DNA of 62,600 nt, from NCBI GenBank assembly GCA_034430495.1, contig DAOUEG010000115.1, positions 1-62,600 on the forward strand. Direction: 5' to 3'. The position numbers and the translations under genes were made by a program. A model generated the notes under the pieces. That model was given only the letters and a program-made list of their open reading frames with translations, searched no databases and had not been told where the DNA came from. Origin of the DNA: Dehalococcoidales bacterium. Its GTDB lineage: Bacteria > Chloroflexota > Dehalococcoidia > Dehalococcoidales > RBG-16-60-22. How positions within the stretch are numbered: position 1 is the first letter of the stretch; each line of letters starts with the position of its first letter. Shown piece by piece: positions 17,826 to 59,847 of this stretch.

Positions 17826-17912
17826 GACAGCCTCCTGGGAACCCGGTCTCGTATACTCGGTGATTGTACACCGCCGCCGAGCCTGCGTCAAACACGAAAA
17901 CCGGCTCCCGGA

Positions 17913-17941
17913 TTGACATTCATGAAGCTGTTGTGTACTCT
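17913..17941 (+). promoter_or_regulatory. Sigma-70-type promoter of AOR paralog 3
   Basis: TTGACA-N17-TACTCT, 58 nt upstream of the ATG. SD AAAGGAG precedes the start. Confidence 0.55.
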
Positions 17942-17998
17942 GTAATGCGGAGCGAAGCACCACCCTTTCGGGAATTAGTGTAAAAAGGAGCATGCACT

Positions 17999-19849
17999 AT
18001 GGCACATGGTTTTATGGGTAAAATCCTCTGGGTTGACCTGGCAGCCAAGACCCTCACCGACGAGCCCCTCGATGAGCGGATGGGCCGCGACTACCTCGGC
18101 GGCTACGGCCTCGGGGCGAAAATCCTCTTCGACCGCCAGAAGGCGGGCGTTGACCCCCTCGGGCCGGACGCCATCCTCGGCCTCATGACCGGCGTCCTCA
18201 CCGGCACCGACGCCCTCGGCGGCTCGCGCTACATCATGGTCGGCAAGTCGCCGCTCACCGGCGGCTGGGGCGACGGCAACTCCGGCGGCGCCGTGGGCCC
18301 GAACCTCAAGTTCGCCGGCTACGACGCGGTCTTTTTCAAGGGCATCAGCGCCAAGCCGGTCTACCTCTACATCGAGAACGGCAAGGCGGAGCTCAAGGAC
18401 GCCGGCAGCCTCTGGGGCAAGGACACCTTCGAGACGCAGGACGTCCTGCGGGAGGCCCACGGCAAGGACGTGGAAGCCGCCTGCATCGGCCCGTCCGGCG
18501 AGAAGATGTGCCTGACGGCCGCGGTCATGAACAACAAGGGCCGCGCCGCCGCCCGCTCCGGCCTCGCGGCGGTGATGGGCTCCAAGAAGCTCAAGGCCAT
18601 CGCCGTGAAGGGCAACCTGGAGGTGCCGGTGGCGGACAAGGCCGCCTCCGCCGCCATGCGGAAGAAGCACCTCGCCAACATGGGCCCGGCCCAGCTGATG
18701 AAGGACTTCGGCACCTGCGGCATGTACGGTTTCACCGCCCAGGTGGACGACACGCCCTGCAAGAACTGGGGTGGCACCGCTGTGGTGGACTTCCCGGACT
18801 TCGAGAAAATCAACGGCCCCAACATCGTTGACAAGCAGGAACGGCGCTACGGCTGCTGGCACTGCCCCATCTCCTGCGGCGGCGTCATGAAGGCCTCCGC
18901 CCCGGACAGCGACTACCAGTGGGAGGCCGGCGCGCACAAGCCGGAGTACGAGACCCAGGCCATGTTCGGCGGCAACTGCCTCAACGATAACGTCGCCTCC
19001 ATCATCAAGGCCAACGACATCTGCAACCGCTACGGCCTGGATACCATCGCCGCCGGCTCCTGCATCGCCTTTACCATCGAGTGCTACGAGAACGGCATCC
19101 TGACCAAGGACGACACCGACGGCCTGGAGATGACCTGGGGCAACCACAAGAACATCATCGCCATGCTGGAGAAGCTGGCCAAGCGCGAGGGCTTCGGGGA
19201 TGTGATTGCGGACGGCACCAGGAACGCCGCCAAGAAGATCGGCAAGGGCGCCGAGAAGTTGGCCATGAACGTGGACGGCATCGAAATCCCGGCCCACGAT
19301 TCCCGCGGCGGCCTCAACTTCGCCATCGGCTACGTCGGCGAACCGTGCCCGGCCAAGCATACCCAGGGCGGCGAGGGCCCGCTGCCGAAGGGCGCCCTGC
19401 CGGAGTTCGACCGCGACGCCACCAAGGGCCGCGGCCCGGCCCACAAGCAGGGTGCCGCCTACACGGTGGCCTACAACGCCGCCGGGCTCTGCATGATCGT
19501 CATCGGCGACGGCTACGGCCACATTGACGACTTCGTCGAGGCGCTCCGCACCATTACCGGCTGGCCGATTGACAACGCCGAGGTCATCAAGACCGGCGAG
19601 CGCATCGAGACCATCCGGCAGGCCTTCAACATCCGCGAGGGCCTCACCACCCCGTGGCACTTCCCGGACCGCATGATCGGCAAGCCGCCCAAGACGGTCG
19701 GCCCGCGGGCCGGCGCCACCCTCAACCCGCCGGACCTCACCGACGAGTACTTTACCGAGCTCGGCTGGGACACCAGGACCGGCAAGCCGAGCAAGGCCAA
19801 GCTGGAAGCGCTCGGCATGGCCGACGTGGCCAAGGTGCTCTACCCGTAA
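17999..19849 (+). CDS. Aldehyde:ferredoxin oxidoreductase family enzyme, paralog 3
   Basis: 616 aa. GFMGKILWVDLAAK...LGGYGLGAKIL and CWHCPISC cluster motif. Confidence 0.9.
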   Translation: MAHGFMGKILWVDLAAKTLTDEPLDERMGRDYLGGYGLGAKILFDRQKAGVDPLGPDAILGLMTGVLTGTDALGGSRYIMVGKSPLTGGWGDGNSGGAVGPNLKFAGYDAVFFKGISAKPVYLYIENGKAELKDAGSLWGKDTFETQDVLREAHGKDVEAACIGPSGEKMCLTAAVMNNKGRAAARSGLAAVMGSKKLKAIAVKGNLEVPVADKAASAAMRKKHLANMGPAQLMKDFGTCGMYGFTAQVDDTPCKNWGGTAVVDFPDFEKINGPNIVDKQERRYGCWHCPISCGGVMKASAPDSDYQWEAGAHKPEYETQAMFGGNCLNDNVASIIKANDICNRYGLDTIAAGSCIAFTIECYENGILTKDDTDGLEMTWGNHKNIIAMLEKLAKREGFGDVIADGTRNAAKKIGKGAEKLAMNVDGIEIPAHDSRGGLNFAIGYVGEPCPAKHTQGGEGPLPKGALPEFDRDATKGRGPAHKQGAAYTVAYNAAGLCMIVIGDGYGHIDDFVEALRTITGWPIDNAEVIKTGERIETIRQAFNIREGLTTPWHFPDRMIGKPPKTVGPRAGATLNPPDLTDEYFTELGWDTRTGKPSKAKLEALGMADVAKVLYP

Positions 19850-44647: not shown

Positions 44648-45556
44648 ATGCCATCCAGCTACGCAAACTACCTCCACAAGCTGACCTTCAGCAACGACGG
44701 CCCCGGCTACTACCGGCAGGTGACCACCATTGATTTGAGCCCGTGGGACATTGACACCCGCATCCAGTACGGCGTCTACGAGGCGGCCGGGCCGCTGGCG
44801 GCGGAGAGCCCGGTGGCCCACACCCACGATTTCGACCAGGTGATGCTCTTCTACGGCGCCGACGCCGCCGACATGGGCGAGCTCGGGGCGGAGATTGAGT
44901 TCCGCCTCAGCGAGACGGCGGAGCGGTTCATGATAACCTCTTCCACGGCGGTGGCGATACCGAAGGGGATGCCGCACTTCCCGGCGGAAATCCAGCGCAT
45001 GAACAGGCGGTTCGTCGGCGTGACGGTGTCCGCGTCATCGGCCTACCGCGAGAAGGCGTACGACATCAGCAAGGAGACGCTCGACAAGGCGCCCTACGGC
45101 AGCTTCATGGGCGGGCTCCGCAAGCACGTCATCCCCATGGCCTTCCAGCGCAAGGGGCCGTGGAGCTACGGCCCGAGCAACCGGGACGATTCCGGCGGCA
45201 GCCTGACCTTCATCCGCGGCAACGACGTGGGCTTCGAGTTCCTCATCATGCTGGAGAGCATCAAGAAGGTGCCCTACCGCTTCGGGCCGGACCCGGACAG
45301 GCCCCACGCCCATGCCCAGCCGGAGATTCTGTTCTTCCTGGGGACGGACCTGGACGACGTATCGAAGCTCAACGGGGAGGCGGAGATCTGTCTCGGCAAG
45401 GAGATGGAGCGCCACACCATCACGGAGCCGACGGCGGTGGTGGTGCCGAAGGGTCTGGCCCACAACCCGCTCGTGATGACGAAGCTGGAAAAACCGTTCC
45501 TGCTGATGGACGTGCGGCCCTTCGGGAGCGGACCGATGAACGCGGGCCGGGGCTAG
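44648..45556 (+). CDS. Uncharacterised bicupin-like protein, paralog 1
   Basis: 302 aa. Two internal repeats, each with HxH...(D/E)...F.G.D...LG.E.E then P(K/A)G..H.P (HTHDFDQVMLFYG...IPKGMPHFP and HAHAQPEILFFLG...VPKGLAHNP). Confidence 0.6.
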   Translation: MPSSYANYLHKLTFSNDGPGYYRQVTTIDLSPWDIDTRIQYGVYEAAGPLAAESPVAHTHDFDQVMLFYGADAADMGELGAEIEFRLSETAERFMITSSTAVAIPKGMPHFPAEIQRMNRRFVGVTVSASSAYREKAYDISKETLDKAPYGSFMGGLRKHVIPMAFQRKGPWSYGPSNRDDSGGSLTFIRGNDVGFEFLIMLESIKKVPYRFGPDPDRPHAHAQPEILFFLGTDLDDVSKLNGEAEICLGKEMERHTITEPTAVVVPKGLAHNPLVMTKLEKPFLLMDVRPFGSGPMNAGRG

Positions 45557-45559
45557 CGG

Positions 45560-45829
45560 TCAGCGTTCGGCGGCGAGCTCGTCGTACACGTCCATGACGA
45601 GGGCCGGGCAGACCCTGGTGCGCCGGATGATGTCCGAGTAGAGGACGGTGCCGTCCTCGGTGAGGATGCGGCGGACCTCTTCCTTGACCTCCGTCCGGGG
45701 CACGCTCCGCAGGACGATGACGTTCTTCTTGGCGGTCTTCTGCTCGAGCTCGGCGAGGCGTTCTTTCACCTGGCGAAGCTCGTCCTCGGCGCCGAAGTAG
45801 TGGTTGACCATGCGGGACCGAAACGCCAT
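45560..45829 (-). CDS. Small hypothetical protein (coiled-coil plus possible winged-helix)
   Basis: 89 aa from ATG 45829. Has its own promoter TTGGCA-N17-TATACT. No recognisable family. Confidence 0.5.
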   Translation of the reverse strand: MAFRSRMVNHYFGAEDELRQVKERLAELEQKTAKKNVIVLRSVPRTEVKEEVRRILTEDGTVLYSDIIRRTRVCPALVMDVYDELAAER

Positions 45830-45862: not shown

Positions 45863-45891
45863 AGTATAGTCCTGCCGCTGCCGGTTGCCAA
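45863..45891 (-). promoter_or_regulatory. Sigma-70-type promoter of the 89-aa ORF
   Basis: Minus strand TTGGCA-N17-TATACT. Confidence 0.55.
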
Positions 45892-45908: not shown

Positions 45909-46145
45909 CTACTTGATGAATTTCTCCACGTAGGCGGCAAAATCAGCCACCGTGGCCAGCGCCGCCATGCGGTCCTTGTCTATGTCCACCTCGATATCGT
46001 AGACGGTTTCCAGGCTGACGATTATCTGCACCCAGTGGAGCGAGTCCGCCTTGATGTCCTTCAGCGGCGTCTCCGGCTTGAGGGAATCCTCCGGGACGCG
46101 GGCCACCCGGGCGATGCTTTTCCTCAGTTCGTCAATGACGGCCAT
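45909..46145 (-). CDS. Acyl-carrier-protein-like phosphopantetheine carrier
   Basis: 78 aa. IKADSLHWVQIIVSLETVYDIEVDID matches the ACP helix II motif with the DSL serine. Acidic. Confidence 0.8.
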   Translation of the reverse strand: MAVIDELRKSIARVARVPEDSLKPETPLKDIKADSLHWVQIIVSLETVYDIEVDIDKDRMAALATVADFAAYVEKFIK

Positions 46146-46161
46146 GGGCGGCCTCCTTTTC

Positions 46162-47223
46162 TTACCAGCTGTGGTCGAGCGCGTCTTTCGGACAGACGGT
46201 TCGGCAGGTCGTCCCGTTACCGGCGGCGCAGGCTTCTTGTCCGGGGCAGGCGAAGGAGAGTTTCTTCCGCAGCTCCTCCCGGACGATGGCCGTGGGACGG
46301 GCGCCGTTCTCGCTCAGCATGAAGATGCCGGCCGGGCAGGCCTCGACGCACTCGCCGCAGCCGTCGCACTTCTCGGTGTCAATGGTGATGAAGTACTCGC
46401 CGGTGCCGTCCGAGTAACCGTACTGGATTTTCTTGATGGTGGCGGCCCCGCCGTGAAAACGCTCCTCGGCGTAGAGGGCGGCGCCGAGCGCCCCGCAGAG
46501 CTGGGGGTCGTCGGCGAGCATGGGCTCCAGCCCGACTTTTTCTTTTAGCTTGGCCACCATGCCCCTGTTCTTGGAGATGCCGCCGGTGATGGCGAACTGG
46601 GGCTCGATGGCGATGCGCTTGAGCAAATTGAGCGAGCGGGTGGCGATGGCCTCGTGGAGGCCGGCGAGGATGTCCTCCTTGGGCACGCCCTTGCGGTAGT
46701 AGTTGAGCGCCTCCGTCTTGGCGAAGACGGCGCAGATGGTGTTGAAGGGGATGGGGTTCTGCGACCGCAGCGAGACGTCCCCGATGTCTTCCAGCTTCAG
46801 GCCGAGCACGTCCGCTATCATCTCCAGGAAGCGGCCGGTGCCGCCGGCGCACTTGTCGTTCATGACGAAGTTGGTGACGTTGCCGTTGCCGTCGCTGTTG
46901 ATGCCCTTGCAGTCCTGCCCGCCCATGTCGAGGATGGTGCGGACCCCGGGGAAGTACCAGTTGATGCCCCGGGCGTGGGCGCTTATCTCCGAGACGTTCT
47001 CCTGCGCGAAGGGCACGAGCACGCGCCCGTAGCCGGTGGCGACGGTGTAGGTGATGTCTTCACGGGCGATGCCGGTGCCGGCGAGGACGGTGTCGAGTAA
47101 TGTTTCCGAGGTGCGGACGCTCTCCGCCCCGGTGTCCATGATGGCGGACGCGGCGATTTCCCGGTCCTTCATGACGACCGCCTTGGCGGCGCGGGAGCCG
47201 ATGTCTATCCCGGCGAAAATCAC
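46162..47223 (-). CDS. BcrAD_BadFG-family ATPase (BCR/HAD electron-activating subunit) fused to a C-terminal ferredoxin-like domain
   Basis: 353 aa from GTG 47223 (GTGA overlap). AGIDIGSRAAK, DMGGQDCK and NDKCAGGTGRF. C-terminal CDGCGECVEACP plus CPGQEAC...CRTVCP. Confidence 0.8.
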   Translation of the reverse strand: MIFAGIDIGSRAAKAVVMKDREIAASAIMDTGAESVRTSETLLDTVLAGTGIAREDITYTVATGYGRVLVPFAQENVSEISAHARGINWYFPGVRTILDMGGQDCKGINSDGNGNVTNFVMNDKCAGGTGRFLEMIADVLGLKLEDIGDVSLRSQNPIPFNTICAVFAKTEALNYYRKGVPKEDILAGLHEAIATRSLNLLKRIAIEPQFAITGGISKNRGMVAKLKEKVGLEPMLADDPQLCGALGAALYAEERFHGGAATIKKIQYGYSDGTGEYFITIDTEKCDGCGECVEACPAGIFMLSENGARPTAIVREELRKKLSFACPGQEACAAGNGTTCRTVCPKDALDHSW

Positions 47224-48014
47224 GGCGCCATCCCCTTGTCGAGGCTCTCCTGCGCCAGCACCGCCGCCCCGTAAGCCACCGTCAGTTGCGGGCGCTCTCC
47301 CACCAGTACCGGGAAGCCGAGCTCCTTCTCCAGCGCCCTGACCAGTCCCTTGTTGAGGGCCACGCCGCCGGTGACGGCCACCTCGCGGCTCACGCCGACG
47401 CGTTTGGCCATGGACATGAGCCGGGAGACGACGGACTCGAAGATGCCGAGGGCTATCTCGTCCCGGGGCGTCGGCGGCACGCGGTGGATGTGGGAGATGA
47501 CCTCCGACTCCGCGAAGACAGCGCAGGTAGGGGTGATGTCCGCCCCCCTGGCCGCCCCGATGGAGACGGCCGCCATCTCTTCCAATGGCATTTCCAGGAG
47601 CTTGGCCATCTGGGTGAGGAAGAGGCCGGTACCGGCGGCGCACTTGTCGTGGTTGGCCCAGTCCGTTACCCGGCCGCGTTCGTTGATACGGACGACGGTG
47701 CTGCTCTCGGCGCCGATGTCAATGACGAGGCGGGCGGCCGGCAGATCCCGGGACACCCCGCGGGCGAGGCAGGTGGTGAGGGATTTTTGCCCGTGGCTGA
47801 AAGCGACCTCCTTGGCCTCGTTGCCCGTGGCGACGATGAAGGCGTCGCCTTCGAGGGAGAGGCCGGCGGTCCGGCACGCCTCGTCCAACGCGGCGCGGGC
47901 GGACTTTTCCGCTTCCTCGGCGGAGGGGACGACGGCCGCGGCGAGCACGGCGCCGCTCTCCGTGACGACGGCCTTGGTCGTCAGGTGGCCGATATCAATG
48001 CCGACGGCTTTCAT
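47220..48014 (-). CDS. BcrAD_BadFG-family ATPase (second, non-identical subunit)
   Basis: 264 aa. VGIDIGHLTTK, DIGAESS and HDKCAAGTGLF. Confidence 0.85.
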   Translation of the reverse strand: MKAVGIDIGHLTTKAVVTESGAVLAAAVVPSAEEAEKSARAALDEACRTAGLSLEGDAFIVATGNEAKEVAFSHGQKSLTTCLARGVSRDLPAARLVIDIGAESSTVVRINERGRVTDWANHDKCAAGTGLFLTQMAKLLEMPLEEMAAVSIGAARGADITPTCAVFAESEVISHIHRVPPTPRDEIALGIFESVVSRLMSMAKRVGVSREVAVTGGVALNKGLVRALEKELGFPVLVGERPQLTVAYGAAVLAQESLDKGMAP

Positions 48015-48024
48015 GGGCTCTTGC

Positions 48025-48056
48025 CGCTCGTCCTGAGCCTGTCGAAGGATGAGCGA
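48025..48056. repeat. REP-like palindromic unit, copy R4 (inside the operon)
   Basis: Stem cgctcgtcct/aggatgagcg (one G-T pair) around loop GAGCCTGTCGA. Confidence 0.75.
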
Positions 48057-48065
48057 TGGTTCTCC

Positions 48066-49328
48066 TTACCTGTCTTCGAGGAGCTCGAAGAAGCCCTCCA
48101 GTTTTTCCCGCAGCTCCGCCTGGCTGGTGACGGTGGGGTCTACCACGTCGCAGTCGAGCGTGAGGACGGGCACGTCCAGGTCGTTCAGGGTGTCCTTGAA
48201 CAGCTTGATGGTGGCGCAGGAGTGGCGGCAGCCGACGTCCGCGTAGTAGATGGCGCCGTCAATCTTGTAGGCGTCCACCGCAGTGGAGATGCTGCCGAGG
48301 GCGCGGTCGTCCATCGGGCCGTACATGCGGGCCTCGGGTATCATGTAGGACTTCTCCGCCACGCTTTCAAGAGGTTTCGACGGGTCGAGCCTCCCCTCCC
48401 CCCAGTAGGTGAAGAAGGGCTCGATGACGGACACCGCGCCGAACTCGATGGACATCTTCTCCAGGAAGGCCATCGAGTACATCGGCGGGATGAAGAGGCT
48501 CATCAAGCGGAACCGCTCCCGGGGCACGGCGCCCTCGCCGGCGGCGATTTTCGCTTCCAGCTCGCCGATGAGCGTCTCCAGGTAGGCGATGCCCTCCGGC
48601 TGGCCGGGGAAGAGGTAGTCAATGGTGACGAGCTCGAGGAAGCCCATCGGGCTGAACGGCGTGGGAACGTTCTTGCGGAGCTCGTTGACGCGGCGGGTGA
48701 GCTCTATCTGGCGGTCCATGCGGGCCACCGTCTCGGCGAGGACGTCCATGTCGAGCTTCTTGCCGGAGTGCTCTTCCAGGAAGGCGATCATGCCGCGGTA
48801 CTCGTTGACGAGGTAGGCTTTCTCCTCCGGGCTCGCCTGGAAGGGGCGGTCAATGAAGTAGCCGGGGCAGTGGCAGAGCTCCATGATGAGTTCGCCGCTC
48901 TTGGCGGTGTTATCGCAGACCATGTTGGACCACAGCATGACGTCCGGGCAGGGGACGGCCCCGGTGGCGAAGGCGCCGGCCAGGCCGCGGTGCGGGGTGC
49001 AGATCTCCTGCGCGAGGCCGAGGGCGGAGCCGGCGGCCAGGATATCGCCGCACTCCCCGGTGAAGAGGGAGGTCATCCAGGTGGTGGTCTCGGTGTGCAT
49101 GGGGACGAGGCCCATCGCGTGGATGAGCTCGGAGGGGAAGAAGACGGTGTGCGCCGCCACGAAATCGCCGTGCTGCCTGGCGTTCTGGAGGCGCTCGAAG
49201 TACCCCAGGAGCATGTCGTAGTACATGACCTGGGAGCGGCGGGCGGCGGGGTCCGCTTCCGTCATCCGCTTGATGAGACGGCAGGCCCGGATAATGGCCT
49301 GTATCTTGCTCCCGGAGGTCGTCGTCAT
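48066..49328 (-). CDS. 2-hydroxyacyl-CoA dehydratase / benzoyl-CoA reductase catalytic subunit family (HGD-D)
   Basis: 420 aa. FFPSELIHAMGLVP, conserved Cys (EICTPHR, VGCRHSC), and the C-terminal LLEDR-type end typical of the family. Confidence 0.8.
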   Translation of the reverse strand: MTTTSGSKIQAIIRACRLIKRMTEADPAARRSQVMYYDMLLGYFERLQNARQHGDFVAAHTVFFPSELIHAMGLVPMHTETTTWMTSLFTGECGDILAAGSALGLAQEICTPHRGLAGAFATGAVPCPDVMLWSNMVCDNTAKSGELIMELCHCPGYFIDRPFQASPEEKAYLVNEYRGMIAFLEEHSGKKLDMDVLAETVARMDRQIELTRRVNELRKNVPTPFSPMGFLELVTIDYLFPGQPEGIAYLETLIGELEAKIAAGEGAVPRERFRLMSLFIPPMYSMAFLEKMSIEFGAVSVIEPFFTYWGEGRLDPSKPLESVAEKSYMIPEARMYGPMDDRALGSISTAVDAYKIDGAIYYADVGCRHSCATIKLFKDTLNDLDVPVLTLDCDVVDPTVTSQAELREKLEGFFELLEDR

Positions 49329-50494
49329 TTCTTGCGGCCCTCGATCATCTCGATAAAAGCCTGGACGCGGGTGGCGATCTGGCCGGAGCCCGACGTGCCG
49401 TACTCCAGGTCCAGCCCGAGCACCGGCACGCCGATGGCCGCCAGCCGCTTGGTCAATAGCGGTACATCATGCGCGTAGGGGACGCAGTAGCGGATAATCT
49501 GGCTGACGACGCCGTCCACCCTGAATTTTTCCACGTACTCGATGATACGGTTGAACCGCTCGTCCGAGGGGTACATGCGGGCGCAGGGGAAGTTGTTGAG
49601 GTAGCGGTGGGCGAGGGCCTCCTGAAGGCTGTCGAATTTCTCCGGGTAGACGAGGTCGCCCCAGTAGCGGGTGCTCGTGCAGAGCTCGTCGGTGACGACG
49701 AGGCCGCCCTCGTTCTCGATGGAAGCGATGAACTCCGGGTTGGTGAGCACGGAGCCGACCACCATGAGGCGGGCGCGGTAGGTGTGCGCGACCTTCGAGG
49801 CTTCTATCTCTTCGAGCAGCTCCTTGAGCCACTCGTTGAAGAGCTCCTTGGGCATGCGGTAGCTGGCGTTGGAGACCTCCATGACCTCGGCGCCGGTGAC
49901 GGGCGGGTGGTCCCGCGTGCGGTACTCGTAGAGGGCGTGGAGGAGGCGGCGGGACTCGTTGTAGAGCTCGATGGAGGCGCGCAGGGCGTCGTCCGGGATC
50001 TCCGTTTCGAGGAACTCCTCGAGGTGCTGCTGGAAGCGGACGACCTCGCGGTGGTAGAGGAGCACGGCCTCCTCGGAGTATTTCCGCGGCACGCTCAGCA
50101 CGTGGTGGAACGGGGTGCCGATGTAGGTGCGCCAGACGTCGAAGAGGCGGCGGGCGCCGTCGCAGGTGGAAGCCCCCACCACGCCATCGAGGAAATCGTA
50201 CTCCCCGGCGAGCCCCATCTGGAGGCAGGAGCGGGAGAAGGAGCAGTTGTTGACGTAGAGGTAGGCGTTGCCGTCGTCGAGGTCCGTCTCACGGTCGTAG
50301 CCGGTGATGCGGACGGACAAAAGGCCGGCGGCGTGGAGGATTTCCTCCGGCACGTAGGTGCAGAGAAACCCGAAGACCCTGCCCCCCCGCTGTTTCCGCT
50401 CCCGTATCTGGGCGGTGTCGGGGAAGGTCCGGTTGACCTCGCGGAATTTCTCGAGCGTTTGCAGCCCGCTGGATTTTGCTGTTCCTGTTGCCAT
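49325..50494 (-). CDS. 2-hydroxyacyl-CoA dehydratase / benzoyl-CoA reductase catalytic subunit family (HGD-D), second subunit
   Basis: About 389 aa. FLCTYVPEEILHAAGLL, NNCSFSRSC and STCDGARR. ATG 50494 is preferred over TTG 50524, which would abut the predicted -10. Confidence 0.8.
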   Translation of the reverse strand: MATGTAKSSGLQTLEKFREVNRTFPDTAQIRERKQRGGRVFGFLCTYVPEEILHAAGLLSVRITGYDRETDLDDGNAYLYVNNCSFSRSCLQMGLAGEYDFLDGVVGASTCDGARRLFDVWRTYIGTPFHHVLSVPRKYSEEAVLLYHREVVRFQQHLEEFLETEIPDDALRASIELYNESRRLLHALYEYRTRDHPPVTGAEVMEVSNASYRMPKELFNEWLKELLEEIEASKVAHTYRARLMVVGSVLTNPEFIASIENEGGLVVTDELCTSTRYWGDLVYPEKFDSLQEALAHRYLNNFPCARMYPSDERFNRIIEYVEKFRVDGVVSQIIRYCVPYAHDVPLLTKRLAAIGVPVLGLDLEYGTSGSGQIATRVQAFIEMIEGRKK

Positions 50495-50526: not shown

Positions 50527-50556
50527 AGTATACCGGGGGCGAGCCTGACGGCGCAA
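50527..50556 (-). promoter_or_regulatory. Candidate promoter of the BCR/HAD-like operon
   Basis: Minus strand TTGCGC-N18-TATACT. Confidence 0.45.
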
Positions 50557-50634: not shown

Positions 50635-51453
50635 TCAGGAAATAAGGTAGCCGCCGTCCACCACGACCATCTCGCCGGTGATATAGGAAGCCATTTCCGA
50701 GGCCAGGAAGAGGGCCGCCCGGGCGATATCGTCCGCCTCCCCCAGCCGGCCGAGGGCCATGCGGGCCATGAAATTCTTGAGTTCCTTTTTCTGCGCCCGG
50801 AGGTCGTCCGGGGAACCCTCGCCGGGCGCGACGCTGGTGGCGAGGGCGCGGGTGAGGATGGCGCCGGGGGCGATGGCGTTGACGCGGATATCGTGCGGGC
50901 CGAGCTCCCGGGCCAGGCTCTTCGTCAGCATGAGCACGCCGCCCTTGGAGGCATCGTAGGCGGTCATGCCCGCCGCCGAGGGGTGGAGGGCCTCGATGGA
51001 GGCCAGGTTGATGATGGCCCCGGGGCGGTGGTGCTCCCGCATCCACGCCGCGGCGTACCTGGAGCAGAGCCAGGTGCCGGTGAGGTTGACGGACGTTACC
51101 TTCTCGAAGTCCGCGGCGGACATCTCTTCGAGGAACATCCTCGGGTAGATGCCGGCGTTGTTGACGAGGACGTCAATGGAGCCGGGCTTCTCCGCCGCCG
51201 CGGCCACCATCGCCCTGACGCTCGCCTCGTCGGCGACGTCGCACTGCGCGGCGAAGGCCTGGTAGCCCTGTCTGGCGAGGTCGGCAGCGGAGGCAGCGGC
51301 GGCGGTCTCGTCAATATCGGCCAATACCACGGCGGCCCCGGCCTCGGCGAGGCGCGCGGCGATGGCCAGGCCGAGACCGGCTGCCCCGCCGGTGACGATG
51401 GCCCCCTTGCCCTTCAGGCTCAGCAGATCCGTAATGGGAACGAAGTCCGGCAT
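50635..51453 (-). CDS. Short-chain dehydrogenase/reductase (SDR)
   Basis: 272 aa from ATG 51453 (SD GAGGTGG). TGGAAGLG, NNAG and YDASKGG. Confidence 0.88.
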   Translation of the reverse strand: MPDFVPITDLLSLKGKGAIVTGGAAGLGLAIAARLAEAGAAVVLADIDETAAAASAADLARQGYQAFAAQCDVADEASVRAMVAAAAEKPGSIDVLVNNAGIYPRMFLEEMSAADFEKVTSVNLTGTWLCSRYAAAWMREHHRPGAIINLASIEALHPSAAGMTAYDASKGGVLMLTKSLARELGPHDIRVNAIAPGAILTRALATSVAPGEGSPDDLRAQKKELKNFMARMALGRLGEADDIARAALFLASEMASYITGEMVVVDGGYLIS

Positions 51454-51567
51454 AACCACCTCGCGTTCCTGAGTATCATACGGGGAACGGGGAGGGGGCG
51501 TCAACACTTTACCGCCCGTCCGGGGGGGAGTACACTATGGTGGCAATTCTCAGCGGGGAGGCAAAGC

Positions 51568-52077: not shown

Positions 52078-53229
52078 ATGCTTGTTGTCTGGCTCATCAT
52101 CAGCGCCATCGTGAGCACCTCCATCGCCATCGGCGTGCTGGCGGCGAAACGGGTGGGGCTCAGCGGCTGGGACATCGCCCTGACCTACCTCGGCGCGGTC
52201 GGTTTCCCGGCCGTCGTCTACCTGCTCGTAGATACCTTTTTCGTCAAGGAAAAGCCATCCAAGGAAGGGAGCACGAACGTCATGGCCAGAGAAAAGGAAT
52301 TTTCCAATCTCGTCAAGAGCATGATTATCAAGGACCCGCCGGCGGGCCTCTACCCGGAAAAACGCATCTGGATGGAGGCGAAGGACCTCGAGGGGTTCAA
52401 CGCCCACTTCTCCTTCGGGTTCGTCAGCCGGCCCACCACCTTCCACCCGCTGGAAGGCGCCCTCGTCCACCCCTACGACGAGCTGCTCGTCTTCGAGGGG
52501 ACGGACACCTCGAGCATCCTCAAGCTCGGCGCGGAGGTCTCCATCGAGCTCGGTGAGGAGCGCGAGGAGTACGTGTTCAACGAGCCGACCGTCGTCCTCG
52601 TCCCGAAGGGCGTCCCCCACGGCCCGGCCAAGGTGCGGAGCCTGGAGCGGCCCATCGCCCACTACAGCATCGGCCTGGCGCCGGAGTACCGGGCGGAGGC
52701 CGTCAAGGCCGCCGACCTCAAGCCCGCCGTGGCGGGCGACAGGTACGCCAGGTACGTCAAGAAGATGGTTACCACCGTGGACGAGAGCCAGGCGAACGGC
52801 CGGATGCCCTCCGTCATCGGGCGGGACGGCATCATGCGGCCGGCGGAGTTCGGCGTGGGGCCGGGCAACGGCGACCAGATTGTCTGGCTCTACGGGGACG
52901 ACCTCGAAGGCTTCAACGTCAACTTCACCTGGGGCTTCTACTCCCGGTGCGGCAAGTGGCACCGCGGCGGCGAGGCCCACACCCACCCGGAGGCGGAAAT
53001 CCTCTGCTTCGTGGGGCTCGATACCGACCACCTGGACTACCTCGGCGCGGAGCTGGAGCTGGGTTTGGGGCCGGACTACGAGCGGCACGTTTTCAACACG
53101 CCGACCGTCGCCATCTGCCCGGCCGGGTTCCCGCACCTGCCGCTCATCACCCGATGGGTGGACAAGCCGTACGGGTTCTTCGTCATCTGCCTCAGCGGCG
53201 AGCACGCCTCGCCGTGGGTGGAAGCGTAG
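52078..53229 (+). CDS. Membrane-anchored bicupin-like protein, paralog 2
   Basis: 383 aa. Two N-terminal TM helices, then two cupin-like repeats (HPYDELLVFEG...VPKGVPHGP and HTHPEAEILCFVG...CPAGFPHLP). Confidence 0.6.
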   Translation: MLVVWLIISAIVSTSIAIGVLAAKRVGLSGWDIALTYLGAVGFPAVVYLLVDTFFVKEKPSKEGSTNVMAREKEFSNLVKSMIIKDPPAGLYPEKRIWMEAKDLEGFNAHFSFGFVSRPTTFHPLEGALVHPYDELLVFEGTDTSSILKLGAEVSIELGEEREEYVFNEPTVVLVPKGVPHGPAKVRSLERPIAHYSIGLAPEYRAEAVKAADLKPAVAGDRYARYVKKMVTTVDESQANGRMPSVIGRDGIMRPAEFGVGPGNGDQIVWLYGDDLEGFNVNFTWGFYSRCGKWHRGGEAHTHPEAEILCFVGLDTDHLDYLGAELELGLGPDYERHVFNTPTVAICPAGFPHLPLITRWVDKPYGFFVICLSGEHASPWVEA

Positions 53230-53317: not shown

Positions 53318-54400
53318 ATGGAGGTCCGCATCAAGTATCGTCCTTTCGGCACCACCGGACGCGAGGTGTCCGTGCTCGGGCTGGCGCTCGGCAACGTGCC
53401 GCCGGAAGCGGTCGAGGCCGTGCTCCGGGCGGCGCTGGCGCGGGGCATCACCTATCTGGAAATCGGCCGGCATGAAGAGCAGGTCTGCCGCCTCGTCGGG
53501 CGGGCGGTGCGGGAAGCCGGAACGGACGTCTTTATCACCGTCAGCGTCCCGCCGGGGCATTTCGATACGGGGTTCGACCTGAAAGCCTGGCTCCGGGAGC
53601 GGGCCGGCTGGCTGGGGGTAAAAGCCCTCGACGGGCTGGACTTCGCCGGGCTCGACCGCAACACCTGGCCGCGCCTGCGGGAGGCGGGGCTGCTGAAAAA
53701 AGCGGACGGTCTGGCAAGACACCTCGGGTTCTCGTTCTACGACCAGGCGCTCTACCTGCGGCCCGTTCTGCGGGAGTTCGGCGGATGGGCCTTCTGCCGG
53801 GTCAACGCCAGCTTCATGGACGCCGACCGCCTGCCGGGGGCGGAGGGGCTCATCGCCGCGGCGGCAGAAGCGGGACTGGCGGTGGTGGCGGCCGAGCCGC
53901 TGCTGGAAGGCCGGCTGCTGAACAACCTCCCTGAAAGCGTGGCGCAGCTCTGGGGCGAGCGCTCCGCGGCCGGGTACGCCCTCCGCTGGGCCTGGCACCA
54001 GTCCCCGGTGGCGACGGCCGCCGTCACCCTGCGCACGCCGGACGAGGTGAACGAATACGCGGATATCGCGGACGGGCCGGAGCTCTTATCCGTACGAGAG
54101 GAAGTCCTCGTCAGCCGCGTGCGGGACGCCTACCGGGCGCTGCGGCCCGTCCCCTGCACCACCTGCCGGGCCTGCATGCCGTGCCCGCGGGGCGTTGACG
54201 CACCGCGTATTTTCGAGCTCTACAACGACGCCGTCATGTACGGAGACCGCGCCTATGGCCGGGCCGTGTACGAGCGGGAAGGGCACGATATCACCCTCTG
54301 CGATGAGTGCGGCGATTGCGCCCGGCGCTGCGGACGCCACATTGACATCCCGGCGCGGGTCAGGGAAGCGGTCGCCGGCCTGCGCCGGCCGGAACCATAA
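53318..54400 (+). CDS. Aldo/keto reductase-family protein with C-terminal 4Fe-4S ferredoxin-like domain
   Basis: 360 aa. YRPFGTTGREVSVLGLAL is AKR-type. C-terminal CTTCRACMPCP and CDECGDCARRC motifs. Confidence 0.75.
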   Translation: MEVRIKYRPFGTTGREVSVLGLALGNVPPEAVEAVLRAALARGITYLEIGRHEEQVCRLVGRAVREAGTDVFITVSVPPGHFDTGFDLKAWLRERAGWLGVKALDGLDFAGLDRNTWPRLREAGLLKKADGLARHLGFSFYDQALYLRPVLREFGGWAFCRVNASFMDADRLPGAEGLIAAAAEAGLAVVAAEPLLEGRLLNNLPESVAQLWGERSAAGYALRWAWHQSPVATAAVTLRTPDEVNEYADIADGPELLSVREEVLVSRVRDAYRALRPVPCTTCRACMPCPRGVDAPRIFELYNDAVMYGDRAYGRAVYEREGHDITLCDECGDCARRCGRHIDIPARVREAVAGLRRPEP

Positions 54401-54438
54401 CGGCATTGGCATTCCGCCGGAGTATCCCCTATAATCAA

Positions 54439-55932
54439 ATGAGCCACATGGACAATCAAAGGGTTCCCCTCAGCAAGGACACGGTCTTCTGGCAGGCGCT
54501 CTTCGCGGCGAAATCAATCGCCGTCATCGGCGCCAAGGACGTGCCCGGCACCTGGGGGTTCGATGCCCTCCACGCCGCGGTGGACTCCAGAAAGACGGAC
54601 CCGGAGCGGCGCGTCTACCCGGTCAATCCCAGCTGCGACAAGCTCATGGGGCTGACCTGCCGCAAGACCATCACGGAGATCCCCGGCCCGGTGGAGCTGG
54701 CGGTCATCGTGGTGCCGGCCCGGGCGGCGCCGCAGGTGTTTCGGCAGGCGGCGGAGAAGGGCGTCAAGGCGGTGGTCATCGTCTCGGCCGGGTTCGCCGA
54801 GGTGGACGCGGCCGGGGCGGCCCTCCAGGAAGAGATAATGGCGACGGCGAAGGAGTACGGCCTGCACTTCGTCGGGCCGAACTGCATCGGCCACGCCGAT
54901 TTCTTCACCCGGGTGGCCAGCGCCGGTCTGGCGAGCCGCCTCCCCTCCGGCCCCGTGTCCCTCGTCACCCAGAGCGGCACCCTCGGCGCCAGCCTCATGC
55001 AGACGGTGACGAGCCGGACGCTCGGGCTGGCCAAGCTCGTCAGCACCGGCAACGAGGCGAGCATCCACCTCGAGGACTGCCTCGAGTTTTTCGGCGACGA
55101 CCCCAAGACAGAGATCATCGCCTGCTACATCGAGGGCCTGCGCCAGGGGCGCCGCTTCTACGAGCTGGCCAGGGAGATTACGAAGAAGAAACCCATCGTC
55201 GTCATCAAGTCCGGCGGCACCGGGGAGGCGGCCAAGGCGGCCCACTCCCACACCGGGGCGCTCTCCGGGGCGGACGCCATCTACGAGGCGGCCTTCCGGC
55301 AGGCGGGCGTTATCCGGGCCGAGGACGAGGACGAGCTGGCGGACATCGCCCAGGGGCTGTGCTACCAGCCGCTGCCGAAGGGCAACCGTATCGCTATTTT
55401 GACGATGGGCGGCGGCTTCGGCGTGGTGACGGCGGAGGCCTGCGAGCGGGAAGGGCTCGCCATCGCCCACCTCCAGGACAAGACGATCAAGCGGCTCGAC
55501 GGCCTGCTGCCGGCCCGCTGGAACCGGGGCAACCCGGTGGACATGGTGGGGCTGCGGCCCGGGGCCGGGGACACGACCGTGCCCGGCTGCCTCCACGCCC
55601 TCCTCGACGACGCCAACGTGGACGCCGTCATCTCCCTCCTGCCGCCGAACCCCGGCATGTTCCAGGAAGTGATGCGGCTGAGCCCGGAAAAACTCAGGGA
55701 AGCCGCCGAGGCCAACGAGCGGTCCGTGGACAAGCTGGCCGGGGAGCTGAAAAGCACCTACGGCAAGCCGGTCTACATCATCAGCCGGTTCTCCCTGCGC
55801 GGCGAGCCCATCAAGACCGGCTACGTGCCCACCCACCAGATGCCGGAGTACACCCACAGCCGGCGGGGGGCCAAGGCCATCGGCCGGCTCGTCTGGTACC
55901 AGCACTACCTCGCCATGAGGAAGAAGCAGTAA
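54439..55932 (+). CDS. ADP-forming acyl-CoA synthetase (NDP-forming, acetate-CoA ligase family), alpha/CoA-binding subunit
   Basis: KSIAVIGAKD CoA-binding Rossmann fold, GPNCIG, SQSGTLG, and GHTGALSG-like AHSHTGALSG phosphohistidine loop. Start uncertain (ATG 54439 or TTG 54406). Confidence 0.85.
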   Translation: MSHMDNQRVPLSKDTVFWQALFAAKSIAVIGAKDVPGTWGFDALHAAVDSRKTDPERRVYPVNPSCDKLMGLTCRKTITEIPGPVELAVIVVPARAAPQVFRQAAEKGVKAVVIVSAGFAEVDAAGAALQEEIMATAKEYGLHFVGPNCIGHADFFTRVASAGLASRLPSGPVSLVTQSGTLGASLMQTVTSRTLGLAKLVSTGNEASIHLEDCLEFFGDDPKTEIIACYIEGLRQGRRFYELAREITKKKPIVVIKSGGTGEAAKAAHSHTGALSGADAIYEAAFRQAGVIRAEDEDELADIAQGLCYQPLPKGNRIAILTMGGGFGVVTAEACEREGLAIAHLQDKTIKRLDGLLPARWNRGNPVDMVGLRPGAGDTTVPGCLHALLDDANVDAVISLLPPNPGMFQEVMRLSPEKLREAAEANERSVDKLAGELKSTYGKPVYIISRFSLRGEPIKTGYVPTHQMPEYTHSRRGAKAIGRLVWYQHYLAMRKKQ

Positions 55933-55933
55933 G

Positions 55934-56617
55934 ATGCCGAAGAAAGCGGAGCCCCCCGAGGAACGACTCGTCAACGAGGTCGAGACCAAGGAGCGCCTCA
56001 GGAAGGCCGGTATACCGGTCATCGAGACACGGCTGGCCCGCACCCGCGCCGAGGCCGTCGAAACGGCCAAAGCCCTCGGCTTCCCGGCGGCCATGAAGAT
56101 CGTCTCGCCGGACGCCATCCACAAGACGGACGTCGGCGGGGTGAAGCTGGACCTCAGGAACGCGGCCCAGGCCGGCCAGGCCTACTCGGACATCATCGCC
56201 AACGTCAGGCAGCACGTGCCGAAGGCGAAAATCGAGGGCGTATCGGTGCAGCGGATGGCCGAGCCGGGCGTGGAAATCATCATCGGCATGACGATAGACC
56301 CGCAGTTCGGGCCGGTCATCATGTTCGGGCTGGGCGGCATCTTCGTCGAGGTCTTGAAGGACGTGTCCTTCCGGCTCGTACCGGTGGCCCGCATTGATGC
56401 CGCCGAGATGATACAGGAGATCCGGGGCAAGGCGCTGCTCGAGGGCTACCGAGGCCAGCCGCCGGTCAACCTCCCGGCGTTGGAGAAACTCATCGTCAAG
56501 GTGTCCGATTTCATCGAGAAGAACCCGGACGTGAAGGAGCTCGACCTCAACCCGCTCATCGCCACGGACAAGGGCATCGTGGCGGTGGACGCGCGCATGG
56601 TGCTCAAGGCAGACTAG
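55934..56617 (+). CDS. ADP-forming acyl-CoA synthetase, beta (ATP-grasp) subunit
   Basis: 227 aa. ATP-grasp pattern (GFPAAMKIVSPDAIHKTDVGGV) and ELDLNPL near the C-terminus. Confidence 0.85.
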   Translation: MPKKAEPPEERLVNEVETKERLRKAGIPVIETRLARTRAEAVETAKALGFPAAMKIVSPDAIHKTDVGGVKLDLRNAAQAGQAYSDIIANVRQHVPKAKIEGVSVQRMAEPGVEIIIGMTIDPQFGPVIMFGLGGIFVEVLKDVSFRLVPVARIDAAEMIQEIRGKALLEGYRGQPPVNLPALEKLIVKVSDFIEKNPDVKELDLNPLIATDKGIVAVDARMVLKAD

Positions 56618-56710: not shown

Positions 56711-57367
56711 TCAGAACGCCATTGTTTTCAGGTCGTCGGCCACTCTCAGCTGCGGCCCGGTGAGGGTCTGCACCTCCTCCGGCGTCCAGCCGGGGGCGGT
56801 CTCCTTCAGCAGCAGGCCGTCCGGCGTGACCTCGATGACGGCGATGTCCGTGATGATGAGGTCCACGCAGGCGGGCGCCGTGAGCGGGTAGGTGCACTTT
56901 TTGAGGATTTTCGGCTCGTTGTTCTTCGTCGTGTGCTTCAGCACGCAGATGAGGTAGTGGGCGCCGAAGGCGAGGTCCATCGCCCCGCCCATGTTGCCGG
57001 GACGGCCGAGGCCGGTCGTCCAGTTGGCGAGGTCGCCCCGCTCCGAGACCTGCATCCCGCCGAGCACGCAGAGGTCAATGTGGCGGCCCCGTATCATGGC
57101 GAAGGACTCGTCGTGCTGGAAAAAACACATCCCCGGCTTGGGCGTGGCGAACTGGCCGGTGGCGTTGACGAGGTGGAAGTCCTGCTCCTCCTCGCGCTCC
57201 GGCGTCGGTCCGTAGCCGAGGCAGTCGAGCCCGGCGGCGACGGCCATCGTTAAGCTGTCCTCGTCCCAGTTCGCGACGGCCCGGCCGGTGGTGGCGGACC
57301 AGTCGCGGGTGCCGGGACCGAGCCGCCGCAGCGGCACGTAGGCCCCGCAGGAAACGATGCCGGTCAT
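56711..57367 (-). CDS. Chimeric ORF: HMG-CoA-synthase/thiolase-fold N-terminus (about 55 aa) fused in frame to a 5'-truncated 3-oxoacid CoA-transferase subunit B. Likely gene remnant.
   Basis: MTGIVSCGAYVPLRRL...WDEDSLTMAVAAGLDCL is the HMGCS-like start. From DFHLVNATGQ...MIRGRHIDLCVLGGMQVS...NMGGAMDL it matches AtoA/ScoB. The SENG catalytic-Glu region is absent. Confidence 0.6.
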   Translation of the reverse strand: MTGIVSCGAYVPLRRLGPGTRDWSATTGRAVANWDEDSLTMAVAAGLDCLGYGPTPEREEEQDFHLVNATGQFATPKPGMCFFQHDESFAMIRGRHIDLCVLGGMQVSERGDLANWTTGLGRPGNMGGAMDLAFGAHYLICVLKHTTKNNEPKILKKCTYPLTAPACVDLIITDIAVIEVTPDGLLLKETAPGWTPEEVQTLTGPQLRVADDLKTMAF

Positions 57368-58917: not shown

Positions 58918-59847
58918 CTAGTCCTTCTTGTGCGACCCCGTATAGGTGTGCGACGGCCCGGCGGAAAAGACGAGCGTCGGCGTCTTGATGTCGTGGAATT
59001 CCCACGGGCAATGTTTCGTTTTCTTCGGGATGCAGACGAGCGTGCTCTTGGTGGTGGCGTGGTACTCGTCCCCGAGGACGATTGACATCTCCCCGCCGAG
59101 GTCGCGCGGCCTGGCCGGGTCGGCCCCGGCCATGGCGATGAGCTCCGGCCACTCGTGGTCGTGCTCGCTCGCCGGGGCGGCGCCGGTACCCCGGAATATC
59201 CACACGAAGTCCACGTAGAAGGCGCCCGGCACCCGGTCTTCCTCGATGTGCATGATGCGTGCGCCCGTGAGGTTGGGGTTCGGCGGGGGCGGCGGCGGCG
59301 CGTCCTTCTTCTTGCCGGCCGCCACGGTGAAGTCCTTGTACAGCTCGTCCACGATGGCGTACTTCTTTTCCCCGGCCGGTTCCGTCACCTGCGGGACGAC
59401 GGTGCGGGTGTAGCGGGGCGTGATGGCGATGGTGATGAAGAAGGTGGGCCGGACGATTTTGTCGAAGCGTATCGGGCCGTGGACGACGCCGGCCGGGATG
59501 AAGATGATGCTGTTGCGCCTGATGGTCTCCTTCCGGCCGTCCAGCCAGACGGTAATCTCGCCGCCCATGTCCTGCGGGTCGTCAATGTGCCCGCCGGCGA
59601 AGGCGATGATATGGTCGAAATCGTGCCTGTGCGGTACGCCGGCCGGCTCCGCGGCGGCGCCTTCCCAGAGCCACAGGCTGTCCACGTAGAAGAAGCCGTC
59701 CTGCTTGTCGGCGCTCGTGCTCATGAGGTGGGTGGTCTTCACGCCGGGGACGGTGTCTTTTGACGTTTTCCCGCTCGCGTCGGCCAGCTCCATGACGTAG
59801 TTATCGGGGTCGTGAACCAGGCAATCTGCGTACTGCTGCGTCGCCAT
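58918..59847 (-). CDS. Uncharacterised bicupin-like protein, paralog 3
   Basis: 309 aa. SD AGGAGGAGG. Repeats HRHDFDHIIAFAG...IPAGVVHGP and EHDHEWPELIAMAG...IPKKTKHCP. Confidence 0.6.
   Translation of the reverse strand: MATQQYADCLVHDPDNYVMELADASGKTSKDTVPGVKTTHLMSTSADKQDGFFYVDSLWLWEGAAAEPAGVPHRHDFDHIIAFAGGHIDDPQDMGGEITVWLDGRKETIRRNSIIFIPAGVVHGPIRFDKIVRPTFFITIAITPRYTRTVVPQVTEPAGEKKYAIVDELYKDFTVAAGKKKDAPPPPPPNPNLTGARIMHIEEDRVPGAFYVDFVWIFRGTGAAPASEHDHEWPELIAMAGADPARPRDLGGEMSIVLGDEYHATTKSTLVCIPKKTKHCPWEFHDIKTPTLVFSAGPSHTYTGSHKKD

Follow-up and report, generated by a model that had tools for sequence, protein, structure and literature searches.

What reaction is catalysed by an enzyme that is built like an anaerobic aromatic acyl-CoA reductase and encoded together with an acyl carrier protein (ACP)? 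The question is raised by an operon at 45909-50494 on the minus strand of contig DAOUEG010000115.1 (GCA_034430495.1) from a Dehalococcoidales bacterium, of which we analysed the stretch from position 1 to 62,600 (hereafter the window). The operon encodes four putative enzyme subunits, here called A to D, followed by the carrier protein, and it belongs to a family of radical reductases with BzdNOPQ architecture that is conserved beside ACP and lipid-synthesis genes, has a ferredoxin domain fused to one of its ATPases, and carries a divergent active site; this combination is new here. The reading that we favour, and consider moderately probable, is that A-B-C-D belongs to the benzoyl-CoA reductase/2-hydroxyacyl-CoA dehydratase/double-cubane superfamily as a four-subunit form specific to Dehalococcoidia, and would serve as a reductase in the supply of acyl chains for membrane lipids, probably acting on acyl-ACP. 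The five open reading frames (ORFs) and their Pfam matches are:

49325-50494, minus strand: subunit A, 389 amino acids from an ATG; HGD-D, 321 bits
48066-49328, minus strand: subunit B, sharing an ATGA overlap with A; HGD-D, 196 bits
47220-48014, minus strand: subunit C, ATPase 1; BcrAD_BadFG, 126 bits
46162-47223, minus strand: subunit D, ATPase 2, sharing a GTGA overlap with C; BcrAD_BadFG, 205 bits, and Fer4
45909-46145, minus strand: ACP, 78 amino acids; PP-binding, 42.5 bits over the full model

These ORFs are tightly packed, with 4-nt overlaps or short gaps between them. A first-pass annotation, made from the letters of the sequence, had described the same five minus-strand frames and their overlaps, and all were found where it had placed them, while profile searches returned the domains it had named for A and B, C and D, and the carrier protein. 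The G+C content at third codon positions (GC3) is 0.79–0.94 in a window of 66% GC, and since this codon-position bias fits coding sequence we take the genes to be real. For subunit A an alternative start at a TTG codon (50524) is possible, but homologs are 388–392 amino acids long; the ACP frame starts 16 nt past D and is preceded by a strong Shine-Dalgarno sequence, AAGGAGG.

A scan that covered one genome per GTDB species detected 418 relatives. The best 80, with identities of up to 91%, all came from metagenome-assembled genomes of Dehalococcoidia or Chloroflexota; we therefore assign the window to an uncultured Dehalococcoidia bacterium and regard the gene set as a widespread trait of that class. 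To describe its neighbourhood, proteins of the window and those around one homolog were compared with six-frame ORFs of 84 related loci (numbered with the prefix L), for which 8–10 kb of flanking sequence was available per locus; downstream counts refer to the 51 loci with ≥2.5 kb after D, and upstream counts to the 63 loci with ≥2.5 kb before A. The order A-B-C-D was kept in every locus long enough to show it, and the two different ATPases always occurred together. An ACP gene was found downstream in 40/51 loci (36 within 2 kb) and plsX in 38/51, while upstream a short-chain dehydrogenase/reductase (SDR) was present in 46/63 and DegV in 39/63. Whether the carrier protein is co-conserved with the four subunits had been raised by the first-pass annotation as a check, and these counts show that it is not an accidental neighbour. 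The spacing is also close, with mostly 13–67 nt from D to PlsX and ≤62 nt from PlsX to ACP.

The majority architecture, which is also the type seen in the window, reads SDR-(DegV)-A-B-C-D-(PlsX)-ACP, with AcpS on the opposite strand. Ten loci instead continue from A-B-C-D into a MaoC/HadAB-like pair, PlsX, ACP, FabL, FabF, FabG and DegV, and five further loci carry this block for type II synthesis of fatty acids (FASII) just upstream of the cluster, divergently oriented in four and on the same strand in L035; FabH is absent from the FASII-type loci. FabF, FabG, FabL and PlsX each score over their NCBIfam equivalog cutoffs, and AcpS and DegV are also clear. When ORFs from 85 loci were clustered, the only neighbour families common to the loci were SDR, DegV, PlsX, ACP, AcpS, FabF and the MaoC-like pair, and the outer flanks were wholly different between loci. 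PlsX and ACP are absent from L089, L090 and L091, which hold more distant relatives of B, and the link with lipid genes is thus specific to this clade. Separately, one window-type locus (L086, 12063-13916) contains a fused acetyl-CoA carboxylase carboxyltransferase (Carboxyl_trans plus ACCA, 617 amino acids) 5 kb after the ACP, which hints that malonyl-CoA synthesis is possible in genomes of this type.

We examined the carrier protein itself. BLASTP found no alignment between the ACP and E. coli AcpP; in a multiple alignment Ser35 (codon 46041-46043) coincides with AcpP Ser36, and this serine, proposed earlier as the phosphopantetheine site, is invariant in 47/47 copies of the ACP from these loci. 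Its best NCBIfam score is 42.6 against a cutoff of 66, and all AcpP cutoffs are missed. Helix II reads KADSLHWVQII in the window-type ACP, whereas the ACP at the same position of FASII-type loci has the canonical ADSLD(I/V)VQIL; the acidic recognition helix II of AcpP (DSLDxVE...EEE) is accordingly not matched by DSLHWVQII. The window ACP has a net charge of -4.4, compared with -10.4 in the ACP of FASII-type loci and -15.4 in AcpP of E. coli. The window subfamily is small: a search of 5.8 billion proteins gave 117 homolog clusters, and the DSLHW motif is present in at least 112 of these. A reciprocal search from the ACP side recovered the arrangement C-D-PlsX-ACP in 4/4 long contigs.

The ACP is also positionally orthologous to the ACP within the FASII block of sister genomes. 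In related loci it follows PlsX, and FabL-FabF-FabG occur only alongside the canonical DSLD-type ACP of those sister genomes. The protein is thus a derived, less acidic form of the PlsX-linked lipid ACP of this lineage and not a free-standing dedicated carrier, which weakens the idea of a carrier dedicated to the radical enzyme and strengthens that of a place for this enzyme in the metabolism of lipid acyl chains. The window retains the ACP and lacks plsX and the fab genes, as well as DegV/FakB-like and AcpS-type neighbours, which is why the lipid context had gone unseen in the first-pass annotation.

Subunit A has more than 1500 homologs, the best 120 of which share 67–91% identity, and many of its orthologs are labelled by JGI as 'bzd-type benzoyl-CoA reductase N subunit'. 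Among solved structures A is closest to BzdN (8s02_B, 182 bits), followed by the double-cubane cluster protein DCCP (158 bits) and HadC (151 bits), and it reaches only 91 bits against MbdN. It has six invariant cysteines, C45, C84, C111, C272, C304 and C337, which align with the [8Fe-9S] ligands C36/73/100/263/293/327 of BzdN given in the BzdNO structure paper, so that all six ligands are kept. A is therefore predicted to be a BzdN-like electron-transfer subunit carrying an [8Fe-9S] double cubane. None-the-less, A falls under all equivalog cutoffs (BzdN, 186 vs 454; HadC, 175 vs 700), and its top NCBIfam match, the double-cubane reductase model, gives 244 bits and is below the cutoff of 350.

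Subunit B has the features of a catalytic subunit. Its residues C110, C138 and C367 align with C95/128/380 of BzdO, the three cysteines of the [4Fe-4S] cluster, and we predict from this alignment a three-Cys [4Fe-4S] cluster with an open iron site. A further, family-specific cysteine, C371, lies four residues on (C367-x3-C371) and is invariant in 76 locus orthologs but not in a wider alignment (A2). In BzdO the benzoyl ring and thioester oxygen are held by Y97, H131, Q274, Y298 and L383, at which positions B has P112, T141, I280, F306 and S370, respectively; hence none of the alignable benzoyl- or thioester-oxygen-binding residues is kept, with Trp46, Ser44 and Glu65 falling outside the reliably aligned region. 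A profile of the B family scored HadB at 97, DCCP at 93, MbdO at 91 and BzdO at 88 bits, which makes B equidistant from the characterised catalytic subunits. An AlphaFold model of B (pLDDT 90.3) gave TM scores of 0.83–0.87 with HadB, 0.83 with MbdO, 0.83 with BzdO, 0.76 with DCCP and 0.64–0.71 with N/beta-type subunits, and agrees with the catalytic-subunit fold of 2-hydroxyacyl-CoA dehydratases, with a predicted three-Cys [4Fe-4S] cluster. B also remains under the NCBIfam cutoffs (BzdO, 48 vs 449; HadB, 77 vs 750). That the subunits might fall inside a characterised clade had been named as a case against novelty; judged by these cutoffs and by the B profile comparison, none of them does.

A search of 1.84 billion representative proteins with B gave 186 relatives with E values below 1e-30, and these form a broad uncharacterised clade. 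Its nearest outgroups are second, diverged copies (B') that are 43–44% identical to B and inserted between B and C in L089 (9001-10254) and L090 (3163-4413), an arrangement which suggests alternative substrate-specific subunits on one common A/C/D set. L090 also encodes an FrhB/FdhB-like Fe-S protein after D. A more distant A-B-C-D set is found in L091, where the ferredoxin is a separate small gene.

The ATPases C and D are well diverged from each other, as their Pfam scores already indicate (126 vs 205 bits). ASKHA motifs and the bridging-cluster cysteines C125 and C164 of C are conserved in 64 orthologs, and D likewise keeps the ASKHA motifs and two bridging-cluster cysteines. Neither approaches the BzdQ cutoff of 380 bits (C, 103; D, 222), and scores of the subunits against the BcrA/B/C/D models are equally low. 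At its C-terminus D carries a 2x[4Fe-4S] ferredoxin domain, with Fer4 family matches over residues 279–350 (about 46165-46401) and eight invariant cysteines (C286, 289, 292, 296, 326, 332, 340 and 344), while its best matches in the PDB, MbdQ (244 bits) and HadI (230 bits), are both ~270 amino acids long and without a ferredoxin extension. Furthermore, B and C are fused into a single 696-residue protein in L023, L038, L082, L084 and L092 (8001-10091 in L092). Together, the two distinct ATPases, their bridging cysteines, the six BzdN-type ligands and the B-C fusions bear out the view, put forward in the first-pass annotation, of a layout like that of benzoyl-CoA reductases and not of the single-activator dehydratases. 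A role of C/D as a fatty-acid kinase for DegV-bound acids was rejected, since conservation extends to every Fe-S ligand and to the ferredoxin domain. No DUF2229 domain was detected in any of A-D using Pfam.

The surroundings of the operon bear on where transcription begins and on which genes may belong with it. The features concerned are:

50635-51453, minus strand: SDR partner gene ('SDRup'), 272 amino acids from an ATG at 51453; adh_short_C2, 217 bits, and adh_short, 183 bits (Pfam)
51475-51504, minus strand: promoter-like site TTGACG-18-TATGAT ahead of the SDR gene; 10/12 consensus matches
50527-50556, minus strand: weak candidate promoter TTGCGC-N18-TATACT within the SDR-A spacer; -35 hexamer 3/6, under the scan threshold
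45560-45829, minus strand: ORF without a known family, after the ACP, 89 amino acids; no Pfam or NCBIfam match

The SDR gene is the immediate upstream neighbour of A on the same strand, separated by a spacer of 140 nt. Its product is a classical N-S-Y-K type SDR with Y184-x3-K188 and an invariant Asp (D64) after beta-2 in 51 orthologs; the cofactor is predicted from these residues to be of the NAD(H) type. A PDB search with this protein returned generic SDR neighbours only and no functional hint. A consensus scan of the region found three promoter-like sites, against 0.6 expected from shuffled sequence. The TTGCGC-N18-TATACT promoter proposed in the first-pass annotation is present as a sequence, but it is missing from the scan list and its -35 hexamer is poor; it is possibly an internal promoter. 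As a better site precedes the SDR gene and the SDR is syntenic with A in most loci, the transcription unit probably starts one gene earlier, at the site before the SDR. The 89-residue ORF beyond the ACP has its own promoter-like site (TTGGCA-17-TATACT, 45863-45891, 10/12), and is found at the same place in L006 with 61% identity, where PlsX and not ACP precedes it. Scans of the entire 62.6-kb window against Rfam and for tRNA genes were both empty, so the spacers are not explained by a riboswitch or other RNA element.

The operon contains no CoA ligase or CoA transferase, as had been noted from the sequence; the nearest are an ADP-forming acyl-CoA synthetase (alpha and beta subunits, 54406-56617, plus strand) and a CoA-transferase fragment of 218 amino acids (56711-57367, minus strand), which lie 4–6 kb away. 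Also nearby (53318-54400, plus strand) is the gene for an aldo/keto reductase with a fused 4Fe-4S dicluster domain. None of these three belongs to a gene cluster common to the related loci. Elsewhere, the window has an unusual local concentration of tungsten/molybdenum-type AOR genes, with three paralogous aldehyde:ferredoxin oxidoreductase genes (AFOR_N plus AFOR_C; 13145-15061 and 15179-17026, minus strand, and 17999-19849, plus strand) clustered with an MFS transporter and another SDR (11923-13143 and 17058-17993, both minus strand). A gene of the MMPL family (RND-like lipid exporters) is found at 9619-11904 on the plus strand. Three proteins without a Pfam family (44648-45556 and 52078-53229, plus strand; 58918-59847, minus strand) all repeat a '[VI]PKG.PH.P' motif and look like bicupins; one of them has a weak Cupin_2 match, and the products of 44648-45556 and 58918-59847 are related at 26% identity. 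The 383-residue member has an N-terminal hydrophobic segment and is conserved beside the SDR gene in L005-L007.

Taking the subunits together, the cysteine patterns predict five Fe-S sites, namely two clusters in the ferredoxin domain of D, one bridging C and D, the double cubane of A and the three-Cys cluster of B, along with two ATP-binding ASKHA domains. The order of clusters along the electron path was drawn by analogy with BzdNO, MbdONPQ and DCCP:DCCP-R. On this basis, an external donor would reduce the two [4Fe-4S] clusters of the domain fused to D, from where the electron would pass to the [4Fe-4S] cluster that links the two ATPases of the C/D heterodimer; ATP hydrolysis at C/D would then bring it to a very low potential and place it on the [8Fe-9S] double cubane of A, and the three-Cys [4Fe-4S] cluster of B may in turn reduce the carbonyl-conjugated system of an acyl thioester by radical chemistry, either ketyl or hydrogen-atom transfer. 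Four features, namely a heterodimeric ATPase, fusions of B with C, a ferredoxin joined to D and a double cubane of the reductase type, suggest that this is most likely a permanent complex with stoichiometric electron use, and hence a reductase, as opposed to a dehydratase primed by a transient activator. The six-Cys [8Fe-9S] ligand set is so far known in the net reductases BzdN and DCCP.

The enzyme most likely does not serve benzoate degradation and instead functions in acyl-chain supply, together with PlsX, ACP, AcpS and DegV, and in some genomes with FabF/FabG/FabL and the HadAB-like dehydratase. Gene order points to the neighbouring ACP as the most likely substrate carrier, and the overall reaction would be a net two-electron reduction of an acyl-ACP that is hard to reduce, with the NAD-type SDR, again judging from gene order, handling an adjacent hydroxyl or keto step. 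Candidate reactions include the reductive loss of a substituent at position 2 of acyl-ACP, such as a 2-hydroxyl, the reduction of a conjugated or cyclic acyl-ACP to give an unusual primer or chain, and the conversion of salvaged fatty acids (through DegV and PlsX) into usable chains. Replacement of the FASII dehydratase or enoyl reductase by A-B-C-D was considered and rejected, because FASII-type loci carry the HadAB-like pair and FabL above its equivalog cutoff. The most specific form of our proposal, an ATP-driven, double-cubane Birch/ketyl-type reductase working directly on acyl-ACP as a regular step of acyl-chain supply and with a specialised, weakly acidic ACP, is held tentatively, at somewhat short of even odds.

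Several observations weigh against our proposal. The tethering of substrate to the ACP is read from gene order alone, and the ACP could be simply part of a general lipid operon, with the reductase acting on a CoA ester, an acyl-phosphate or a phospholipid. No ACP is found nearby in 11/51 loci, in the close relative L006 the stretch from D to the conserved small ORF holds PlsX but lacks an ACP, and PlsX is missing from the window, from which it follows that an ACP gene in cis is not strictly needed. Likewise, A and B are themselves acidic, with overall net charges of -11 and -20, which lends no support to docking of an acidic ACP. Finally, B lies just as close to HadB, a dehydratase subunit, and dehydration with electron recycling is therefore conceivable. 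In this alternative the SDR would make a 2-hydroxyacyl thioester, which A/B would convert by ketyl-radical chemistry into a 2-enoyl thioester that enters fatty-acid synthesis, for example as a primer, and C/D would be only an activator. HadB indeed gives both the top score of the B profile and the closest structural match to the B model, a hydroxyl/keto-type SDR is conserved upstream, and in FASII-type loci the enoyl-ACP reductase FabL and FabF follow where FabH is absent. We none-the-less consider it unlikely, as A has the full six-Cys double-cubane site that is typical of the reductases BzdN and DCCP, HadB and HadC cutoffs are widely missed, and the SDR lies outside the D-2-hydroxyacid dehydrogenase family used by known pathways. 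Furthermore, known 2-hydroxyacyl-CoA dehydratases have one homodimeric activator that is made in small amounts, whereas this operon has a pair of different ATPases, of which D bears a fused ferredoxin domain and C is joined to B in some genomes.

The remaining alternatives seem to us less probable still. A true class I (Bzd-type) aromatic acyl-CoA reductase that degrades benzoate-like compounds, with the adjacent ACP and PlsX explained by phylogenetic inertia, would agree with BzdN being the best solved relative of A, with the identical four-subunit layout, and with the bzd-type naming of many A orthologs; papers have also interpreted bzd-like genes of Dehalococcoidia as benzoate degradation genes. 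We give this little credence, for all subunits score far under the Bzd and Bcr equivalog cutoffs, the residues of BzdO that contact the benzoyl group and thioester oxygen are replaced in B, and the 85 loci share no conserved gene for a CoA ligase, dienoyl-CoA hydratase, hydroxyacyl-CoA dehydrogenase or ring hydrolase, while the synteny with lipid genes holds across loci with completely different outer flanks. Similarly improbable is a reductase of the ether-lipid or plasmalogen type, like PlsA/PlsR or Ger, that would act on a phospholipid ester or acyl-phosphate and not on acyl-ACP. The lipid-metabolism gene context would suit it, but DUF2229 is missing from every subunit, all four look soluble with no membrane-anchoring feature noticed, and the tight coupling is with PlsX and ACP, not with PlsY or PlsC. 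A PlsA-like role also seems to be already filled in L017 and L050, which encode a separate BcrAD_BadFG plus DUF2229 protein near the cluster. Least probable of all, and very much so, is a DCCP-like enzyme that reduces a small molecule with no relation to lipids: the double-cubane reductase model is the best NCBIfam match of A, but the score is under cutoff, A always pairs with a distinct B where DCCP is homodimeric, and the conserved lipid neighbourhood would be left unexplained.

If a carrier-protein-linked enzyme of a lipid pathway is indeed what this operon encodes, it would widen the known scope of this chemistry, since to our knowledge the characterised enzymes of this radical superfamily all act on CoA esters or small molecules. 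In the BCR/HAD/DCCP superfamily (benzoyl-CoA reductases, 2-hydroxyacyl-CoA dehydratases and double-cubane proteins) it would be the first member to depend on a carrier protein, and its oxygen-independent radical reaction would be new, whether it serves lipid biosynthesis or the salvage of environmental fatty acids in subsurface Dehalococcoidia. Bacteria of this class rank with the most abundant in marine and terrestrial subsurface sediments, and the operon points to an unrecognised step by which such energy-starved organisms may build or recycle membrane acyl chains. Should the set found in the 418 genomes be a lipid enzyme, many of the inferences of anaerobic aromatic degradation that are routinely drawn from bzd-like genes of this class, and many marker-gene surveys, would be wrong. 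The view that neither characterised enzyme type is encoded with an ACP agrees with our literature search, which, with subscription journals mostly outside its reach, returned no paper linking BCR, HAD or double-cubane enzymes to ACP, PlsX or Dehalococcoidia lipids.

How A-B-C-D compares with known systems can be set out from the most remote to the nearest. The anaerobic plasmalogen synthase PlsA/PlsR belongs to the same superfamily, acts in lipid metabolism and has two ATPase modules and HGD-D-type modules; PlsA-type proteins are long fusions that carry DUF2229, and we know of no link of PlsAR to an ACP. Unlike these, A-D have no DUF2229. The separate protein in L017 (2-3313) and L050 (1-3609) is longer than 1100 amino acids, lies ~2.5 kb upstream of SDR-DegV-A-B-C-D, and has an architecture that we take to be that of the 'CoA enzyme activase' or PlsA type.

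DCCP with its reductase DCCP-R (PDB 6ENO, 7YYL) has the same six-Cys [8Fe-9S] site as A and drives a low-potential reduction with ATP, but DCCP is a homodimer served by one homodimeric ATPase, has no ACP or lipid context and its physiological substrate is unknown, whereas A invariably has as its partner a different subunit, B, with the three-Cys site. (R)-2-hydroxyisocaproyl-CoA dehydratase (HadBC with HadI; PDB 3O3M, 4EHT) resembles our system in that B is as near to HadB as to any reductase subunit, and in that HadI shares its ATPase fold and cluster cysteines with C/D. HadI is, however, a single homodimeric activator, HadC holds a simple [4Fe-4S] cluster and not a double cubane (PMC11971306), and the genes that accompany the Had system are those of a CoA transferase and a D-2-hydroxyacid dehydrogenase, with no ACP gene among them.

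The 3-methylbenzoyl-CoA reductase MbdONPQ of Thauera chlorobenzoica (PDB 9G87, 9GAI) includes the protein most similar to D, MbdQ, and a catalytic subunit, MbdO, that superposes well on B, and it is a permanent four-subunit complex, as we propose for A-B-C-D; A is nevertheless remote from MbdN, and an aromatic-pathway context is absent here. Closest overall is BzdNOPQ, which has the same four gene types in the same order, a heterodimeric ATPase with bridging-cluster cysteines in both subunits, all six [8Fe-9S] cysteines found in A and the three [4Fe-4S] cysteines found in B. Against this, identity is only ~20–30% and below family cutoffs, the alignable benzoyl and thioester residues of BzdO are not conserved, B has the extra cysteine C371, and the ferredoxin that is a separate protein in the Bzd system is fused to D. 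Lastly, where BzdNOPQ is encoded with the benzoyl-CoA pathway, the present family is linked with ACP, PlsX, DegV and the FASII genes.

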